Of a stretch of 64,000 nucleotides of DNA, positions 7,437 to 40,805 are shown one piece after another. The stretch is taken from positions 7,876,001 to 7,940,000 of the forward strand of contig CM097885.1 of NCBI GenBank assembly GCA_044892525.1, written 5' to 3'. The stretch comes from Schmidtea polychroa. Taxonomy: Eukaryota. A program made the translations under genes and the position numbers. Under the pieces are notes generated by a model. That model searched no databases. It worked only from the letters and a program-made list of their open reading frames with translations, and had not been told where the DNA came from. Positions within the stretch are counted from its first letter, which is position 1, and each line of letters begins with the position of its first letter.

Positions 7437-10259
7437 TATAAATTAATCTCTGAATATAACAAATATAATCACAACTATAAAACATGATTTCTTCGAATTG
7501 ATAATATATTTATATTTTTTCATTGTTAATCCGATCCTTTTTGACGCATTTAAGTGAGTACATGTCATTATCATCATGGACCTAATTGTACCATTAATTC
7601 CCTCAATATGTAAATAACACAAACAGTTTTCTGACTTGTTTTAATTTATACATAAATTTTCATTATTTTTAATAACTTATGGAATAATGTAAAAAGAAAA
7701 AAAATTTATTCAATTAAGAAAATCCATTCACTTGTTTGAGTTTGATTTTGATGTTGAATAATTGAATTTTAATTACGAGTTGTTGATAAAAGTTTCTGTT
7801 AGAAAATTTTGGTATTTATTTTTTGCGGGGAAATTACATAATAGTTGCAAAATCATATACTAATATAATTCGACGTCATTGTTTGTTTGAATCATATAAT
7901 AATCATACATTTATACATACTATAAAGGGAATACAATTCAAACTTCAAATGATAAATATAAATAATTAACAATAATTATACTTTTTCCTATTTAAACCAA
8001 ACCTGAATTTATTTCTATTTACAAAATACTTTAAAATATGTCCTTAGTTATTTTAATTCACATTTAATGACTAATAGATTTTTGTTTTATTACTTAATAT
8101 TATATAAATTTTAAAGAACATTGATAAGAAATAAATTAATTAAATAATTTAAAAATATATGAGGGTGTTTACTAATTAATTAATCAAATTTTAAAATCAA
8201 AATTAATTTTCATAATTTAAAATCAAATATTATTAAATTAGATATGGTAATTTAATTTAGTAATAAAATTTAATTTATATTTATATCAATTGAACATTGT
8301 TAAAAAATATCTGAAACAGTCATATATTAAAATAAAATGTATTTTATAATGACATTTCCTTGTCAATTATTATTCAAAGATTTACTACCTTAAGACGGTC
8401 AATCCAAATCATTGCATACTAATAGCTCATTATCTCATTACTTTAAAAAATACCGTTAATTTAATTATAGAATTTATATGAATTAAAAGTTAGTAATTTA
8501 TCAACAATCTAAACCAACATTTATCGATTTTCAATTATTATTTTTTCAAGCTTTCCCATTGAAACAATATATTTGAGAATTAAATTAATAAGGTTTTTAA
8601 TAAGGAACCAAAATATGGGAAGTATTATTAATTAAATCGTAAACTTCCACAAATTATGAGTGATTTCGGCTGCAAATATCATTAATACACTAAAAATAAA
8701 ACTTCAACTTAATTAAGTTATTAATTTATAATAATTCATAAAATTATTCTCGAACAATCTCTAATCATTCTGTTAGTGCTGTTGCGTTTAATCTTCAATG
8801 TGCTCTTGTACCAGTTATTATAAATGCAGTGTTTTTTGGGGAACATTTATCATGTTAAATTCAGTAAATTCAGAAAAGTACGCTAACCTTGAATGGGAAA
8901 TTTATTCAAGACTTATAAAAGCATGACAACCTCCCTCGATCCTCAAAAATTAAGAAAATGTGTTGCTCAGAAATTAAAACAATTAATTTGATAGTGAAAT
9001 CTTGCTGTTAAGCCGAGGCTTCTGTTAAAATTTCAATGAATTCTGAAAATAATTATGCTAACCAAGCAGCAACAATGTCACTTGACAAAGAAACTCAAAA
9101 CAACAATGCAAAAAATTTTATTTCATTTCAAAGGATTTATTTTTGTTTATTTTCTTTTATTAAGTCTTTCAGAAAGGAAATTAAAACGATATTAAAGAAT
9201 AATATTTTATCTAAAACTTGTGAATATAATATATTATTATTTATTAATAATAAATTTATGAAATATATTTCTCAAGACAAAAATCATCGAAGAAGACGGA
9301 ATTATATTTCTGGGTTTTTTTTATTTGAAGAAAAAGTTTGCAATTTTATTAAGAAAATTTAATTGATCTCAAATAAATTTTTCTAGATAATTTTGCTGGA
9401 TATTAAATTTATAATTTTAAATTAAACTGGCGGGAAATTTCCAAAAGAAATTTTTTTTCAATTTTTTACAAAGTTCGTTTAAATTAAATTTATATTAATA
9501 TTAACTTTGCATTTTATTTTAACAAATTTATTTATTGTGAATTTATATAAATAGAACCCCTCTCCCTTTAATTGACAGTATTGTAAAGGAAATTAAGAAA
9601 TTACAACCCCATCATAAAATAAAAGTGAAAACCATACTATGTAAAGACGAATCAATTTTCAAATAAATAGAATATTCTGATTTGTGATTGACAGTTTCAA
9701 TATGATTTCCAAAAAGCATAATTACTAGGTGAATTGGTTTTAATACACAATTTCCAAATTCAATTTGATAGGAGCAGAAAAATATACACACTGTCCAATG
9801 AATGCGCAAATACGGAGTATGAAAATAAAGTCTAAATTACAAGACAAAGGCGAAAGACATTTGGTTCTATCCACAAACATTATAATAAAATATAAGCATA
9901 CAACTTTGAGATAATTACATATTTGTGTATTTTTTATGAAACCCCAAACAATGTCACGTGAACATTATCTCTGAATAATCTGCTTATAGCAAATTTTATT
10001 TTGAAATGATGTAAGAGACAGTAATAATTTTTTAATTGATTAGATAAACAAGTTTCAATGAAGTTGAAATAATGAAAAGTTGGTAAAAATAATTATAATA
10101 TACGATACTAACGAAGAGACACGACTTTCATTGTCCTCCTTCATGAATAGATAAGAATTTATATTGAAATAAGTAAATAACACTTGATTTGACATGTCAT
10201 TATTTTTTTAAATTAACCCACTTTCCATGATCGAATCGATCGAAAATTCTGATAACATG

Positions 10260-10435
10260 CAGTGTTCTCAACAACGAATCTACTTGCCAAATATCAGCTC
10301 AATCCGATCAGTAGGTTAAGTAGGAAGGTAGGTGAATTTGGCCTCACAAAATTTGAGTGACACATACAAACATTGGTGAAGTTAATATAGACTCTACTTT
10401 CGATAGCTACGCGGTCGACGCTTTTGCCAGCCCTG
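10260..10435. mobile_element. Possible degenerate hAT-type MITE
   Basis: Ends cagtgttctcaa / ttgccagccctg resemble hAT TIRs (CAG..); no clean 8-bp TSD. Confidence 0.4.
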
Positions 10436-10441
10436 ATATAG

Positions 10442-10747
10442 AGAGTAATGATACTACTGTTTAATCATTATTGAAATTTGAACCAAAGTTGATATTTGAA
10501 ATGAAACTGAATTGCCATATAAATCTTTACGAATACCCACATCGTATTTCATCATGCTGTTATATGTTGCCTCACAACTACCGTACATCGTATGACCACG
10601 CATTAAAGCGCATAACTGTGTAGCTAATTGATCAATTGGAATTGTCTCGTACAAAGTTAGAAAATAACAATTTGCATTTGATCTCATCTGATCTGAGAAA
10701 ATATTACTAATTCCAGCCATTGCACATGAAATATTTTTCTTTACCAT
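10442..10747 (-). pseudogene. Chimeric ORF: proteasome alpha3 (PSMA4)-like fragment fused in frame to actin fragments
   Basis: aa1-57 NISCAMAGIS..NIFSDQMRSNANCYFLTLYETIPIDQLATQLCALMRGHTMYG resembles alpha3 [55 protein letters not shown]. Then EATYNSMMKYDVGIRKDLYGNSV matches actin [23 protein letters not shown], and STLVQISIMIKQ*YHYS resembles the actin C-terminal STFQQMWISKQEYDES. Confidence 0.7.
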
Positions 10748-12030
10748 TCCTCATCTTTGTAAGTCTTTCTTCCTTACGATTATGTTAACAAATATTTGAT
10801 CATTGAAAATAGATCTGTGAAATGTTCAGCAAAATCAAACTTTTCTTTTATTCATTTGAAATTTGTCAGAAAAGAAAATAAAATGTAATCGGTCTAAAAA
10901 GCCTCAAAATTTTCATTTCTCAATTGCAGTATTTAAAACAAAGGGAAATTGCAATAGAGTATGATCCGATCATCCGCTGAACTAATGTTTTTAGAACAAA
11001 AATCATTGAATCTGCAAATTTTCATGAGTCTAGACTTTTGACGGTTTCTGCCTATTAATCGTCTGCGGCATAGGGGAAATAGTTCAATAGATGACAGGCA
11101 TTAGTTTACTTTTATAATATTATTTGTTTGTTTAGTGAACCAATATACCTGAATACTGAGTCGAGAGCCAGTTTAATTTTCATTTCCTATATGTAAAAAT
11201 AATTCATTTTAGAGAAATAGTTAAATACTTATTTTTTGAAGCCTTATGTTATAGTGATGGATCAGTTAAACAGTAATGAGAAACCCTCTTACATATATAT
11301 TGAGATGATATATATATATATATATAGACGGTAAAAGGATAAAAGGATAACAGAAACCATAATGTCTTTGTCACTAAAAAGTACATGAGTAAAAACAAGC
11401 AATTTTTTTCTTATCCCCCAAAAATGTATTTCTAAGAGAAATATTTATGAAAAATTTGTATAATTGTCTTTTAGTTCTTCTAGACTCCCGATAACGAAAA
11501 TATAAAATATAAATCTTTATAACATGCTTCTTGCTATTTAGCTTAAAGTCAAACTTGATTAAAAATTAAATTTTAAAAATCTAAAAATTATTGTTCTCAT
11601 CTGAATTTGCAGTCGACTGTCAAATTATATTATTTTCAATCCACTTTAATTTATCTTCAGAGAAATTTATTTATATAATTATAAATATAAATAAAAATTA
11701 ATAAGATAATTACTATTATTATTATTACACATATGGTGGTCCACGAGACTAAATATAATGGGGTAAGTGAGACATGACATGCATGTCTCATGGCAGCTAA
11801 CATGTTAAGAAGAAAAAAATGAGAATTTTCGATTATGAAATCCACCTCTTTAATCTGCATAAGAAAATATTTTGAATGTGAATTTGAAAATGTTGATCTT
11901 TTATTTTTGAATTTTCTGCCTTTTTATTGGATTTTTATTTAATTTTGAAATTCAAATTTTTATCAAAAATGAACTTTTACAACTTTATTTATTATTTATG
12001 ACAAATTTTCTTAATATCTGCAATCCTTGT

Positions 12031-13349
12031 TGTGAGGTGTTTTCAGCTGAGAATTGAATATTTCAATGATTTATTAAGATAATTTTGAATGATAAATAAT
12101 TGACATTTAATATAAGTTTTAAAATAATTTTTAAATTAAAGAGATTTTGTTAAAAACAAATTTTAAATAAGTTTTAATAGTAAATAATTTTTATATAAAT
12201 ACATTTTAATTATTGAAAATTTTAATAAATTGTTTTGAAAATATTTTATTCAAGGCTGAAATTTGTTTGAAAATTATACAATATTTCATTAAATAAATAC
12301 TTGGAATTATGACGTTATCTTTTAAACCTAATTTAAAAAATAATTTAGAAGATTTTCTAGCAACTTCTAATACATTTGAAACAAAATATTTAAGTAAAAT
12401 AAAACTTCAAAACAAAAGTTTAAAACTTTCAAATGCAAAAATAAACTTAAAACCTTTTTCAAACTCATAAAATTAAAATTACTGTTGTTTGCTATAATTT
12501 TGACACAGAACTTTTTTCTACTTTTGTTCTGGTTGACAAAGTTAATGACTGATAAATTACTACAAGGATCTAGGTGTTCTTTAATTCTTTGATGTTATTC
12601 TCTACGCGCACTTTCTATTTATATTTTTGCCAATGTATTGCACAGAATTCATTAGACCACCTGTTTTTTGCAATTCTCAAATGTCCTTTTTAGTATTGGT
12701 AATGAAAGTATGTTTCAGTGTCCAAGATTTATGTGCTATGAGAATTGGAAAGCCGATCACTATATTTACTTTGAAGATTTTGCAGTAAAGGTGATTGCTG
12801 AAAACGATTTCTTTAGATAAAAATATTTTCTATTAATCAAATTTCCTAGACTATCAAGATAGAATAAAAATCTTTAAATTTCATTGTTATTGTAGCTGTT
12901 TTGATTAAAGAATTTATTGAATATTGTCAGATGTTTTGAGTTTTCTCATAGCTGCTGAATATGAAAATAAAATCGATGTATACAATCCAACAATTTGTAA
13001 ATTATCAATATTAGAAGCTTCCTACACATCTTCTAAATTATTTTTTAAATCCGGTTCAAAAGTTAACATCATAATTCCAAGTATTTATTTAATGAAATAT
13101 TGTATAATTTTAAAACAAATTTTCAGAGTTGAATAAAATATTTCAAAAAACCATTTATTAATAAATTTCGATATTTAAAATATATTTATTTAAAAATGAT
13201 CCAGTTAAAAAGCTTGTTTAATTTAATAATTCAAAAATTTCAGTTTAAATATTATTTTCAAAGTTATTTTAAATAGTCAATTATTTATCATTTAAAATTA
13301 TCTTAATAATTTTTTGAAATATTTAATTCTCAGCTGAAAACACCTCACA
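12031..13349 (-). mobile_element. Foldback Penelope-like remnant with long imperfect inverted arms
   Basis: tgtgaggtgttttcagctgagaat... at 12031 is mirrored by ...attctcagctgaaaacacctcaca ending 13349. The centre on minus has GIY-YIG-like IGK..R..RIKEH remnants and shares sequence with the PLE at ~33300. Confidence 0.65.
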
Positions 13350-26939: not shown

Positions 26940-28478
26940 TTAATATACCTAAAGATAAAATCTTGAAAGCCATTTCTAGAATTCCTGAAATAAATTACAT
27001 AAAATAAAATCCATTTTCGCATAAATGGCGAGTCACAAATAATTGATGTACACACCAACCACCATTATAGAAATCGCATCTCAATGGTTTCTGGTTTAGC
27101 AAAATAATGAATCCCGCATACGCTCATCAAGACATAGACGCAAGAAAATTTATCAATTATATGTACATTATCCTTAAGAGAATTGCAGTAGTTAACATAT
27201 AACATTATGTCAAAAACAGGAATTTTATTAAAATTTCCTGCTTAGAATAGAAACTTATGACGTTCAAAGCTGTTTATGAAAATAATTCTTTATGCTATGT
27301 GTTTTGTGGATAAATATTAAATAACTTAGATATTATCAGATACTTTTCCGTGTTGAAGGTCAAAGGAGTTAAAATATGCCCAGGTCTTCTAAGGGTTTTT
27401 GAAATTAGTTTACATATTTTTGAAATCTTGGATGGTAGATCGAGTTCTTCTAACATCGGTCTAATAAATTTTCACATTAACGACATAACTTGTTCGTTGG
27501 TTCGTTTGTGGAGAAAGCAAGGTATTATTACACAGATTCATATAATTCAAGGATAAAATCTTTTATAACAACTCTCTCTCGCTCTTTATCCATGTTCTTT
27601 TTGATACTCAATTCACGTGAATAATCAAAGCGGTTACAGCGAGACTTATTTTATCTGCCTATGATGTTATCATGTTATTCTGTCTATATATGTTATTCAA
27701 ATTATCAAATCTAAATTATAAACTATAACGAACCCATAGGTTTACTATATGGCAACCTAAATAATGGTACTGGAAGGTATCTTTGGTCAGATATTACTAT
27801 TTCTTTCATTTCTTTGGTCAAATTATGGTTAAAAAATCTATTAGATTACTATTAGATTAACCGTTAAATACTTTCACTGCACCTCAGTGGCTATTTTAAA
27901 TTTATATTTTTGCAATATTTGAATTTATTTTAATTGAAGATTTTGTGTTCTTTGATGAGTGAAGAAATACATATGTTCTTTTAAAAAAAGATTATCCAGA
28001 TCTGCATTAAACTTATATTGGAACTACTGTAGTGCAAGGAAAATGTTTGTATAACAACATTTATGTCATATAAAATGATATAATTTCTAATGCAGACTAG
28101 TTACGAGTTTATTAACCAATCACCAATGTTATATATGAAAATTGGTTATACTCTGTGTTAAACACAATCATACTGCTATCAGGTATGCTAATCTAGTCAC
28201 TACATCATCAGACCATGTTTGCATTTTAAATCTTCAAATAATCAAATACATATTTATAATATTAATTACTTTTAATAATAATGTTTATTTCAGGGGGCTA
28301 AAAATAATTTAATTAAGTCAAAAAAGAAAGTCTTAACGACGATTCGTACGTCACCATTATGTAATGTTTTTTGTAAAAAGCTTTTTGATAATTATTCAAT
28401 TTATAAATAAATACATTGTTTCGACCAGTCAGAGGGGGATTGCCTCTGACTGGCAGTTTGTTGCATGCTTCTTTTGGT

Positions 28479-28542
28479 TCGCGTCTGTGTGCGCGGTCTG
28501 GTTTTGTTCGAATATTGTTGGTGTGCGCACACAGACGCGAGA
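28479..28542 (+). promoter_or_regulatory. Inverted pair of the CGCGTCTGTGTGCGC motif upstream of cassette 1
   Basis: tcgcgtctgtgtgcgc (28479-28494) and gtgcgcacacagacgcgaga (28523-28542); the same motif occurs six times upstream of cassette 2. Regulatory role inferred from position. Confidence 0.55.
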
Positions 28543-28672
28543 AGTAGGTAATTTCTTGGGTTATTGTAATTTTTGTGATATTAATTTTTGTAGAAATTAG
28601 ATTTGATTTTGTCGTTTGTTTTATTGATTAATTTTGGAATTCGGGAAGTGTGGAATTTAAAAGAGCGAAAAT

Positions 28673-29198
28673 ATGAAAGCGAAGATTGTGGAAAATGAAA
28701 AGGGATTATTCCAAGTCGAATATGCATTTAAGGCAATGGCATTAGATGGATTGCTTTCCGTTGGTATTCGAGGCAATAATTGTAGCTACACAAAGAAAAG
28801 TTCCAGATAAAATGATTGAGAAGAGTTCAGCTACAAGATTGTTTAATATTACTGAAATTACTGGAGGTGTTATGATTGGTATGATCCCTGATTGTCGATC
28901 TCAAGTATGTCGTGAACAAGTGGAAGCAGCTCGATTTAAATCTAAAATTGGATATGCAATGCCTTGTGACATAATATGTCGTTCTACTGCGGAATTTGTT
29001 CTATTGTTCGATCAACTCTATACCCAATCGGCTGAGATGCGACCATTAGATCCTGATTTCATTCAATTTCGGCCAAGGAGGGCATTATCTCATGATATTG
29101 AAATGGACAAACTATTATTATTCAAAACTGATCCACGTGGCCCTGTAGATGCCAATAAAATTGTTATACCATTTCTTGGATTTATTTGTTTTTTGTAA
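28673..29198 (+). pseudogene. PSMA6: Truncated, frameshifted proteasome subunit alpha type-6 (alpha1) fragment with a foreign N-terminus
   Basis: ATG 28673 gives MKAKIVENEKGLFQVEYAFKAMALDGLLSVGIRGNNC. An 8-nt deletion relative to copy 2 shifts the frame to ATQRKVPDKMIEKSSATRLFNITE..YTQSAEMRPL..KTDPRG; homology stops after KTDPxG. Confidence 0.88.
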
Positions 29199-29329
29199 AA
29201 AGCTTTTTGATAATTATTCAATTTCTAAATAAATACATTATTAAAATTCCATTGATATTTCCGAATACAGACCAACTGGAGTTGGAGACTTATAAGTACA
29301 TATGCTACCAACCTTACAAGACGTTGAAA

Positions 29330-38939: not shown

Positions 38940-39062
38940 TTATTTATTAAAAAAATTGATTATAAATCAGTTAAGATATCGATGTTTTTTGATATTCACG
39001 AATCTTTACTGATATTTACTGATTCATAGTAAATACAATAAATACAATGTCAATTGAAAAGA
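38940..39062. mobile_element. Partial family B element abutting cassette 2
   Basis: tatttattaaaaaaattgattataaatcag..atcgatg..tcacgaat..tttactgattcatag..aataaatacaatgtcaattgaaaaga. Confidence 0.7.
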
Positions 39063-39599
39063 TTATAGAAAAGAAAAATATAGAATATCAATTTTATTGT
39101 CATCAACAGAGCCACTGGGATCAGTTTTGAATAATAACGGTTTGTCCATTTCAATATCATAAGATAATGCCATCATTGAACAACCTAATGGTCGCATCTC
39201 AGCCGATTGGGTGTAAAGCTGATTAATATCCGCAATACAACGACATATTATGTCACAAGGCATTTCATATCCATCTTTATATTTAAATCGAGCTGCTTCC
39301 ATTTGTGCACGACATACTTGAGATCGCCAATCAGGGATCATACCAGTCATAACACCTCCAGTACTTTCAGTAATATTAAACAATCTTGTAGCTGAACTCT
39401 TCTCAATCATTTTATCTGGGACTTTTCTTTGTGTAGCTACTACATCACAATTATTGCCTCGAATACCAACGGAAAGCAATCCACCAAATAAATTTGATAT
39501 TAGTTGGCCAAAAACACCATTGACGTTATCAGATTCAAAAGACCATTTATCCTCGATTATATTGTTTGATTCATAAATTTCTTCATTAAAAGCAGCCAT
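39063..39599 (-). pseudogene. PSMA6: Open 178-aa chimeric ORF: 38-aa foreign N-terminus + proteasome alpha type-6 (alpha1) fragment + foreign tail; expressed status unknown
   Basis: GGLLSVGIRGNNCDVVATQRKVPDK..VMTGMIPD.RSQV.RA..EAARFKYKDGYEMPCD..IADINQLYTQSAEMRPLGCSM..KTDPSG matches alpha1. Lacks the N-terminal FDRHITIFSPEGR motif and the C-terminal third. Confidence 0.85.
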
Positions 39600-39744
39600 A
39601 TTTTATCGGAAGCACATAAACTCCAAAAAACCGAAATCGATAAGTAAATCTTACACCCAATCACACCATTAACAATCAAATTTTTTAATCTAAAAAATTA
39701 CTACAAAAAACACAACTAACAAAATAAATTGCCATACCTCTTAC

Positions 39745-39969
39745 TCGCGTCTGTGTGCGCACATCCATATTACCATAATTCTGCACACAGACGCGAGAAC
39801 ATTCAACAAAACATACTCATAAATCTTCACAATTCTTTACTCGTCTGTGTGCGCACAGAAACCAAAAACAAAGATAAAGGCGCACACAGACGCGAGATAA
39901 ACCAACAACCCGACCATTTTACGCGTCTGTGTGCGCACACAACCCAAACAAAAACGCACACAGATGCGA
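39745..39969 (-). promoter_or_regulatory. Array of six alternating-orientation CGCGTCTGTGTGCGC(AC) motifs upstream of cassette 2
   Basis: Copies at ~39745(F), 39783(R), 39841(F), 39880(R), 39921(F), 39955(R) with divergent spacers. Regulatory role inferred. Confidence 0.6.
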
Positions 39970-40805
39970 CAAACTAATAATTTACCAATAAATACAATGT
40001 CAAATACAAATGTCAAAGTTTTTATAATGTACATACTATTTTCTATAGATATGATCTATTCAGTTCACTCTTTATTGTTTGAACTGTAAAATAATTTGAC
40101 CTTGAACATGAAAATAAATAAAATAATCTTACATTACAATATTTAACAGCACAACACCAAAATAATAAAAGTGGTAATAAAAAAATAATTAGCCGTAGCA
40201 TTATTATTGGTATAAATAGAAATATTGTAAAAGGAAGCACAATTTTACAACAATTTAATATTTATTCTTTATAAATTTCAAACAATTCCTAAATTCTAGG
40301 AATATATGTATAAATTTAATTAAATTCTTACAAGAGAAACTTTTCTTTTGTATATTATGGGAGAAAATAAAATTGGTTTTGGGAATTATTTATGCTGTTA
40401 TTTTTGATAATATTTATTATCCGTCAGTTGCGAATCTCCTATATTCTCAAGCTGGACAATTTTCCAACATGAACTGACTGGATTAGAACTAGCTGTTATA
40501 TTTATTTTTAAAATAAATACTAAATAAATACTAAAAGAGAATTATAATAATTTTCCTTTTGTCGAAATTAGTTGTTAATCTCTTCTAATAAATGGAAGAT
40601 TACCATTCCCATAATTTAAATCTAATTTGGAATTTATTAAGGATTTGAAATTATAATACCGTCACAGTTGTTCACGTAGCGGCATCCTTTTTACATGTCT
40701 TTCTGGGATCTCTCATATCAATCTTAATAATCGTTTACACAAAACAATCAGTGAAACGTATTTTATTAAGCTTCCGTTTCTGTAACACAATATGATTATC
40801 TAAAT

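Follow-up and report, generated by a model that had tools for sequence, protein, structure and literature searches.

What is a reading frame that fuses a piece of a proteasome subunit to a piece of actin doing in the genome of Schmidtea polychroa? The frame lies in a stretch of 64,000 nt that we analyzed as a whole (hereafter, the window; about 23% G+C), on contig C1 of a 781-Mb genome. It encodes 97 amino acids on the minus strand (positions 10454-10747, stop codon included), and the original prediction described it as an in-frame chimera of proteasome alpha3/PSMA4 and actin. We found that this chimera is real. For residues 4-58 the best match is proteasome alpha type-4 (E = 1.4e-5), and the matches for residues 54-82 are actins (E = 1.1e-4; both by phmmer against proteins of solved structure). 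The genome's own PSMA4 gene (L023) and an actin gene (L082) also align to the DNA of the frame, in a single orientation and a single reading frame, as had been proposed. A domain search had been suggested as a check and its outcome was split: phmmer supports the proteasome segment, but Pfam returned no family for the 97-aa sequence at E ≤ 1. A protein search yielded no candidate among proteins of 53-170 aa, with a query that is a short mosaic of low power. Finally, independent DNA sequencing runs from two studies contain the locus, including the junction and both borders: one record of run X3 spans 10505-10817 with zero differences, and records of run X5 span 10436-10530 and 10506-10622.

The reading that we consider highly probable is that this frame is the 3′ remnant of a decayed long terminal repeat (LTR) of a BEL/Pao retrotransposon, from a family whose LTRs carry spliced pieces of host genes in frame with ubiquitin-Gag, and that the chimera is likely the product of a template switch in which reverse transcriptase left an actin-cargo element for PSMA4 mRNA. 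What we observed is the LTR anatomy, the missing intron, the ends and the deletion shared with an actin-only LTR, and a frame that runs continuously from LTR through primer site and ubiquitin into Gag in young relatives.

The chimera is present in many copies. Among 40 scored matches to positions 10200-11100, 28 span just 10458-10750 at 76-82% identity, one is the window itself, and the other 11 belong to a separate high-copy repeat (window 10141-10430, with very high contig depth) that starts about 30-65 bp past the LTR end. Copies of the junction elsewhere had been suggested as a search target, and a 28-letter junction pattern indeed has 61 matches in the genome, on all four large contigs, against 0 for the reversed control. 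The longer copies start with TGGTTAATTATG, followed by a paired CGCGTCTGTGTGCGC leader and the PSMA4 start codon, and end in ATTAAACA or TTCAACA, with unrelated flanks. Full copies measure 546-760 bp; the window copy (10458-10750, minus strand) is thus the 3′ part, 293 bp in length, and lacks the leader that its sisters carry. Its missing 5′ half corresponds to the leader, the start codon and PSMA4 codons 1-35. The 5′ halves of four sister copies, aligned beside the window copy, gave no match, and no displaced 5′ half or left target site was found in the window or in the preceding 10 kb.

Read along the minus strand, the window copy opens with PSMA4 codons 36-40 (10738-10750 by alignment to L023), which include the ATG of the ORF, an internal codon equivalent to host Met37. 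A 90-nt in-frame deletion follows, which we called in 14 of 44 copies, and then PSMA4 codons 71-127 approximately (10571-10737, from the phmmer match and the DNA blocks against L023), where a 9-nt in-frame deletion is seen in the window copy. The original prediction placed the junction near 10577, and we located the switch zone from PSMA4 to actin at 10582-10571; there, host PSMA4 reads GGTGGTCGT and host actin reads GGTATTCAT, with six of nine bases alike and in codon register. Actin codons 273-300 occupy 10501-10582, which also carry the phmmer match to actins, with 82% identity over 82 nt to L082 and 84% over 125 nt to the actin-only LTR L127. After an in-frame deletion of 45 nt come actin codons 316-328 (10460-10497), which read EISALAPPTMKIK in the host gene L082 and form the LTR's own 3′ end. 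This deletion is found in 19 of 44 copies and in L127, and the undeleted form is found in L121, L135 and L142. These three actin-cargo relatives keep the middle of the segment, show ...EISALAP(S/P)(S/T)(M/I)KIK or an eroded version of this sequence, and terminate at the same CA, which shows that the tail of the chimera is not the KQEY of the actin C-terminus, as had been thought.

The apparent Q-stop-Y that led to this assignment is in fact flanking DNA. Homology to the sister copies stops at the terminal CA of the LTR (10459-10458), and the third base of the Gln codon, the TAG (10454-10456) and the Tyr codon lie in flank that differs in each copy; the stop of the ORF is therefore outside the element. 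The last nine bases of the LTR match the family's 5′ end, TGGTTAATT, as an inverted repeat at eight of nine positions, and in L120, L121 and L245 the terminal CA is followed by primer-site sequence. With actin codons plus CA making up these nine bases, the match suggests that captured actin DNA supplied a usable integrase end.

Could the 97-aa ORF be a functional gene newly gained by the host? In its favor, the frame is uninterrupted between ATG and stop and occurs in the DNA runs of two studies. However, its ATG is an internal PSMA4 codon, its stop belongs to the flank and its leader has been lost. The last 90 codons are likewise free of stops in six of 20 sister copies, so that the open frame of the window copy is unremarkable. 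Its end branch in the tree of copies (0.12) is also as long as those of broken copies (median of 0.097). We regard a new host gene as very improbable here. The window copy looks like a dead fossil, which adds an older traceable lineage, and it is probably not expressed; on its own, it matters only as a fossil of the capture process. Two sequencing runs presumed to be RNA gave no coverage of positions 10100-11300, a result that says nothing about expression.

We then examined the lineage as a whole. A set of 54 loci was reduced to 44 copies by removing three without a PSMA4 match and seven repeats; most were found through the junction. The host PSMA4 gene contains a 41-nt intron after base 46, and all 33 copies that span the join between exons 1 and 2 lack it. 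The original prediction had invoked template switching between abundant mRNAs: capture through RNA agrees with this absence, but a switch directly between two host mRNAs is probably not what happened, since the actin half shares both of its ends and the 45-nt deletion with the actin-only LTR L127. The termini are of the TG...CA type, with 15 of the 17 copies whose two ends were called ending in CA; the window copy retains the CA end alone. The 5-bp flanks are alike at four to five positions (at most one mismatch) in six of these 17 copies. The remaining 11 show no clear target duplication, a count to be read with the facts that two of them are not solo LTRs and that some ends are loosely called. 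A non-LTR processed pseudogene was rejected as the source: the copies have no intact mRNA 3′ end with poly(A) and stop at a fixed CA inside actin coding sequence. A second subfamily (L201-L228 and L245; 18 of 44 copies) is distinguished by a longer actin deletion (87 nt in L222) and different last 12 bases.

The identity of the carrier emerged from its leader, CGCGTCTGTGTGCGC, which has 6,424 exact matches genome-wide. A search for spaced leader pairs recovered L113, where two 936-bp repeats, 99.9% identical and carrying the leader, are flanked by the target duplication GTTAT. The primer site TGGTAGCAGAGCGTGGTT lies right after the CA of the first repeat and a G-rich purine tract lies before the TG of the second. 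Pfam recognizes ubiquitin, DUF1759 (E = 1e-11), DUF1758, RVT_1, Peptidase_A17 (E = 9e-46) and an integrase zinc-binding domain in this element. L111 has the same layout, with EAP30 and proteasome (PSMA6) cargo, the duplication AATAT, the primer site and the purine tract, and without pol; several PSMA6 LTRs also show an exact target-site duplication. The polypurine tract before the 3′ LTR is clear in L113, L111 and the actin-only L127, and worn in the PSMA4-actin copy L012. The primer site is complementary over 18 nt to genomic tRNA-Met plus CCA, and corresponds to the 3′ terminus of tandemly arrayed tRNA-Met genes; this array (L242, on G000:C1 from 79326000) has a period of 454 bp, with dozens of units listed. 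The window itself contains no tRNA gene within its 64 kb. The combination of LTR end and primer site has 351 exact matches in the genome. Overall, the family comprises elements of 4.8-7.7 kb with Pao domains and exchangeable LTR cargo, and the cargo lies inside the LTRs, in both of them and in solo LTRs, and not between them. Judged by sequence, the carrier of the PSMA4-actin chimera is an LTR of this BEL/Pao family.

Short inverted ends, duplications of 5-6 bp and hairpins near one end could instead point to non-autonomous DNA transposons that captured gene pieces in the manner of Pack-MULEs or Helitrons. The paired direct repeats around Pao gag-pol, the primer site, the purine tract and the absence of the intron in 33 of 33 copies make this explanation hardly tenable. 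Readings as DNA transposon, Helitron or non-LTR element had been drawn from the ends and were dropped, the full-length elements contradicting the first two. We also discarded a candidate LTR pair at C2:42.30/42.34 Mb, which proved to be a long duplication with 100% identity. In L111 (3050-5900) and L112 (2661-4310), without pol, Gag runs into a long low-complexity frame; these are likely non-autonomous derivatives. A search with Gag alone returned nine relatives elsewhere, and the ubiquitin family was listed in none of the nine; a query of linker, ubiquitin and Gag was swamped by polyubiquitins.

The connection of the PSMA4-actin lineage itself to internal sequence is more worn. L245 reads CA followed by TGGTAACAGAAGGTGG, with three mismatches to the primer site, and the sequence beyond it aligns to the pre-ubiquitin linker of the actin-cargo elements L143 and L148, and of L137. 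The scores were 80, 75 and 55 (L143, L148 and L137, respectively) against maxima of 39, 55 and 43 from 100 shuffles; against four other elements, the scores were not above those of the shuffles. L012 is preceded by a worn internal end along with its worn purine tract. Ubiquitin, gag or pol was found correctly placed beside none of the copies (among 30 primer-site loci and by tblastn on the copies), and no paired-LTR PSMA4-actin element was found; the link of this lineage to Gag is consequently drawn from one worn primer site, its linker and the sister LTRs. The only internal domain detected beside the copies was a pol piece on the opposite strand: a Pao integrase fragment in L214 (771-1045), just upstream of a truncated copy and 91% identical to L113 over 35 aa. 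An AT-rich repeat (window, about 12030-12372) also precedes the copies L003 and L012, at a distance of some 0.85-1.5 kb and in matching orientation, and has no match to gag or pol.

The younger relatives show how the cargo is read. We took the first 30 of the 351 loci with LTR end and primer site, which represent 23 distinct LTRs after removal of repeats. In 24 of the 30 loci, at least 100 stop-free codons lie upstream in the frame that crosses the primer site, and none do in the other frames. The primer site is read as His-Gly-Ser-Arg-Ala-Trp in this open frame. Counted by distinct LTR, 17 of 23 have at least 100 open codons adjoining the primer site. Because one of the other frames has a built-in stop at the LTR end, we recounted by the longest run anywhere (699 nt, 23 distinct LTRs), and 18, 0 and 0 LTRs reached 100 codons in the three frames. 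The window copy uses this same cargo frame, and its terminal CA is the start of the would-be His codon. Ubiquitin (Pfam E = 3e-22) lies downstream in 28 of the 30 loci, and in 11 of 30 no stop interrupts the frame over the whole of the 1.5 kb fetched. Among 21 ubiquitin ends, LRLCGG is the most common (12), 17 read LRLCGG or LGLAGG, and four read LRLRGG. Cleavage after Gly-Gly is predicted but is not assured, since ends other than LRLRGG are the most common. Two ubiquitin units precede Gag in L167-L170, L172, L173, L175, L176 and L191.

A mechanism can be proposed from this arrangement. Transcription would start near the paired leader, and translation would start inside the 5′ LTR. Host deubiquitinases would cut after Gly-Gly and so give Gag a fixed start whatever precedes it, and this would leave the first-copied part of the LTR free to be exchanged: the part first copied from the tRNA-Met primer could be swapped by template switches onto co-packaged RNAs and then be copied into both LTRs. 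Only stop-free, in-frame swaps would still make Gag, which in a region of 23% G+C would favor coding pieces in sense and in frame. Captured host coding sequence in frame with a viral protein is also known from cytopathic pestiviruses with ubiquitin insertions and from transducing retroviruses with Gag-onc fusions, and the ubiquitin of cytopathic pestiviruses is a processing signal cut by the host. Unlike the LTRs described here, those cases concern an RNA virus or a retrovirus, arose as single events and carry their cargo outside the terminal repeat.

The main rival to cargo taken up by chance accepts the same LTR anatomy and holds that the cargo was chosen for its function, with fragments of proteasome, ESCRT, ubiquitin-ligase or actin genes, or host-like RNA, blunting host degradation or silencing. 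Pieces of protein-turnover and trafficking genes do recur among the cargo (by Pfam, proteasome, EAP30, RING, Ras-family and DSPc pieces), and two different proteasome alpha genes were taken; other cargo we take to be gamma-COP, Hsp70 and a WD40 protein. Mid-frequency changes in the PSMA4-actin lineage lean synonymous as well (35:18 nonsynonymous to synonymous against about 3:1 expected). On the other hand, the pieces are cut, shuffled and shortened regardless of domain borders, and the chimera has no Pfam match. The source genes are also abundant housekeeping mRNAs, which fits chance co-packaging. We consider selection of cargo for function unlikely.

The order of events within the lineage can be approached through actin. 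L082 is the closest host actin, and L127, the actin-only LTR that follows an integrase end and purine tract homologous to those of L113, shares its 5′ end, 3′ end and 45-nt actin deletion with the chimera. L120 has an LTR similar to that of L127, followed by a worn primer site and remnants of Pao gag, protease and RT. The actin part of 15 chimeric copies averages 82% identity with L127 and 79% with L082, compared with 66-73% for 11 other host actin loci (L120 was left out, as an insertion broke its ungapped match). Within PSMA4, two further deletions, one of 45 nt in 19 copies and one of 90 nt in 14, have nearly the same starting point, and the three common deletions are all multiples of three. 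In the tree, the window copy groups with support (98/95) in a clade of 10, and the median length of end branches is 0.097. The simplest reading is that actin came first, then its deletion, then replacement by PSMA4 and then the further deletions, an order that we infer, given the small margin of L127 over host actin (82 vs 79%) and a tree in which only 2 of 42 branches are well supported. PSMA4 thus likely replaced the front of an older actin cargo, as far as the alignments indicate. In this order, one lineage would have acquired actin and shed 45 nt; PSMA4 would next have displaced the front of this cargo and itself been shortened by 45 and then 90 nt. The lineage would then have spread, been reduced mostly to solo LTRs and decayed, with the window copy later losing its 5′ half. 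Such a lineage offers a natural series in which steps of capture, replacement and deletion can be ordered.

Alternatively, PSMA4 and actin might have been joined in DNA, if an actin LTR recombined with a PSMA4-only LTR (or retrocopy) or the two were brought together during repair. All LTRs of the family share a leader that could pair, only six of nine bases are alike at the join, and the loss of the intron shows just that PSMA4 passed through RNA at some stage. Against this, template switches at such short similarities are a route documented for LTR elements, according to the passages of Tan et al. 2016 (PMC5131818) on retroposition. No PSMA4-only LTR was found among the 44 copies, a weak test given that most of them were found via the junction. 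We judge a join in DNA to be quite unlikely and retain the switch of reverse transcriptase from an actin-cargo element onto PSMA4 mRNA.

We further analyzed the substitutions that accumulated in the copies. Rare changes (398 nonsynonymous, 106 synonymous and 30 stop) are near the neutral expectation (1324:449:83), which indicates that inserted copies decay. No stop occurs among the 53 mid-frequency shared changes, against 30 among the 534 rare ones. In the 25-75% frequency range, changes are distributed 35:18:0 (nonsynonymous:synonymous:stop) and those at 75% or above 13:15:0, a class that mixes in change on the host side. These numbers hint that stops were kept out of the frame as the lineage multiplied, and that residues were only loosely constrained. 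Against such selection, a 1-nt loss in a T run is common to four copies and a 46-nt call to three, both out of frame. The tally of rare indels (42 of 170 in frame) is noisy with alignment artifacts and was set aside. The in-frame bias of deletions at short similarities in coding sequence may also arise without selection.

The window contains two other members of the family, and the original prediction suspected that a mechanism shared with these PSMA6 cassettes, or a local hotspot, accounted for their proximity. The shared mechanism is supported by the sister PSMA4-actin copies, which carry the same leader as the PSMA6 cassettes. The first of the two, an LTR with PSMA6 cargo (28417-29187, plus strand), starts with TGTTTCGACCAG, has a leader pair at 28480-28539 and no recognizable terminal CA, and is 75-78% identical to PSMA6 LTRs over 755-811 nt. 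The direct duplication around it is about 50 bp long (28365-28416 and 29188-29240) instead of 5 bp. The second (39075-39987, minus strand, 3′ coordinate approximate) carries RING-gene-like and PSMA6 cargo, has three leader pairs and an eroded 3′ end, and is 79-88% identical over about 700-850 nt to L064, L067, L185, L187 and L188, the last three of which adjoin the primer site. Its flank duplication measures 15 bp (39046-39060 and 39988-40002). Counting two leader matches per LTR, we estimate about 3,000 family LTRs in the genome, or one per 250 kb; three in one window is above average but requires no local cause, and a hotspot is unneeded, with exact leader matches in the thousands and junctions on all four large contigs. 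A profile search of the genome with PF00227 gave at least 151 matches (150 scored of 1,376 candidates), and 16 of the top 30 loci are leader-bearing PSMA6 LTRs. Actin pieces are LTR cargo in 12 of the 30 primer-site loci. The matches listed in a search with PF00022 (1,145 candidates) include about 21 whole actin genes and, in addition, dozens of broken pieces of actin. Annotation should take note that what look like proteasome and actin paralogues in this genome are LTRs in hundreds of cases.

How does this family compare with known systems? BEL/Pao elements are described as metazoan, and the Flow BEL/Pao superfamily was reported from a planarian (PMC3118150). As in the elements outlined there, L113 combines DUF1759, DUF1758, RVT_1, Peptidase_A17 and integrase zinc-binding domains with TG...CA LTRs, a primer site and a purine tract; unlike in those outlines, its long ORF starts inside the LTR and ubiquitin precedes Gag. 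The giant planarian elements Burro and GYPSM1 (PMC6431247) are likewise LTR elements and also include additional host-like domains, among them a ubiquitin/SUMO-like one, but are presented in that account as gypsy-like, longer than 30 kb and with the extra domains fixed in the polyprotein. LTR-mediated retroposition is closer to our case: the retrocopies treated by Tan et al. 2016 (PMC5131818), who also cite maize Bs1, are partial spliced host mRNAs joined at short similarities, and include multi-gene chimeras, further copying rounds and one case in a BEL element. In the cases set out there, the retrocopy takes the place of some of the internal ORF sequence that the LTRs enclose, whereas here the cargo lies within both LTRs and in solo LTRs, forms the LTR 3′ end and is in frame with ubiquitin-Gag, and the Pao domains are kept. 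Our literature search turned up no account of host cargo that is carried in LTRs and continues in frame into ubiquitin-Gag; repeat databases, which could hold these families, were outside its scope. The PSMA4-actin LTRs would extend LTR-mediated gene capture, with cargo placed in the LTR and read in frame with ubiquitin-Gag, and would represent a route that seeds an animal genome with thousands of promoter-bearing, in-frame chimeric reading frames.

A broader and more tentative proposal is that the LTR acts as a translated, swappable gene slot, in which pieces of host mRNA are sampled, shuffled and kept only when in frame, ubiquitin frees Gag and even the integrase end can be host coding DNA. 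The PSMA4-actin copies would then be a fossil series of turnover from long before the young families, and some cargo (proteasome, ESCRT, ligase) might be kept for disarming host protein turnover or silencing. This is possible but doubtful as a whole.

Two further features of the family LTRs were observed. In many of them (L032-L050 and L057-L080), the last leader copy is followed by AGGT words that resemble splice donors, then by a T-rich stretch and the ATG, and a leader intron is possible. Finally, many LTRs lie in (ATT)n or (AAT)n microsatellites (L008, L009, L034, L036, L042, L045, L049, L050, L062, L073 and L078), which suggests either a target preference or a survival bias.
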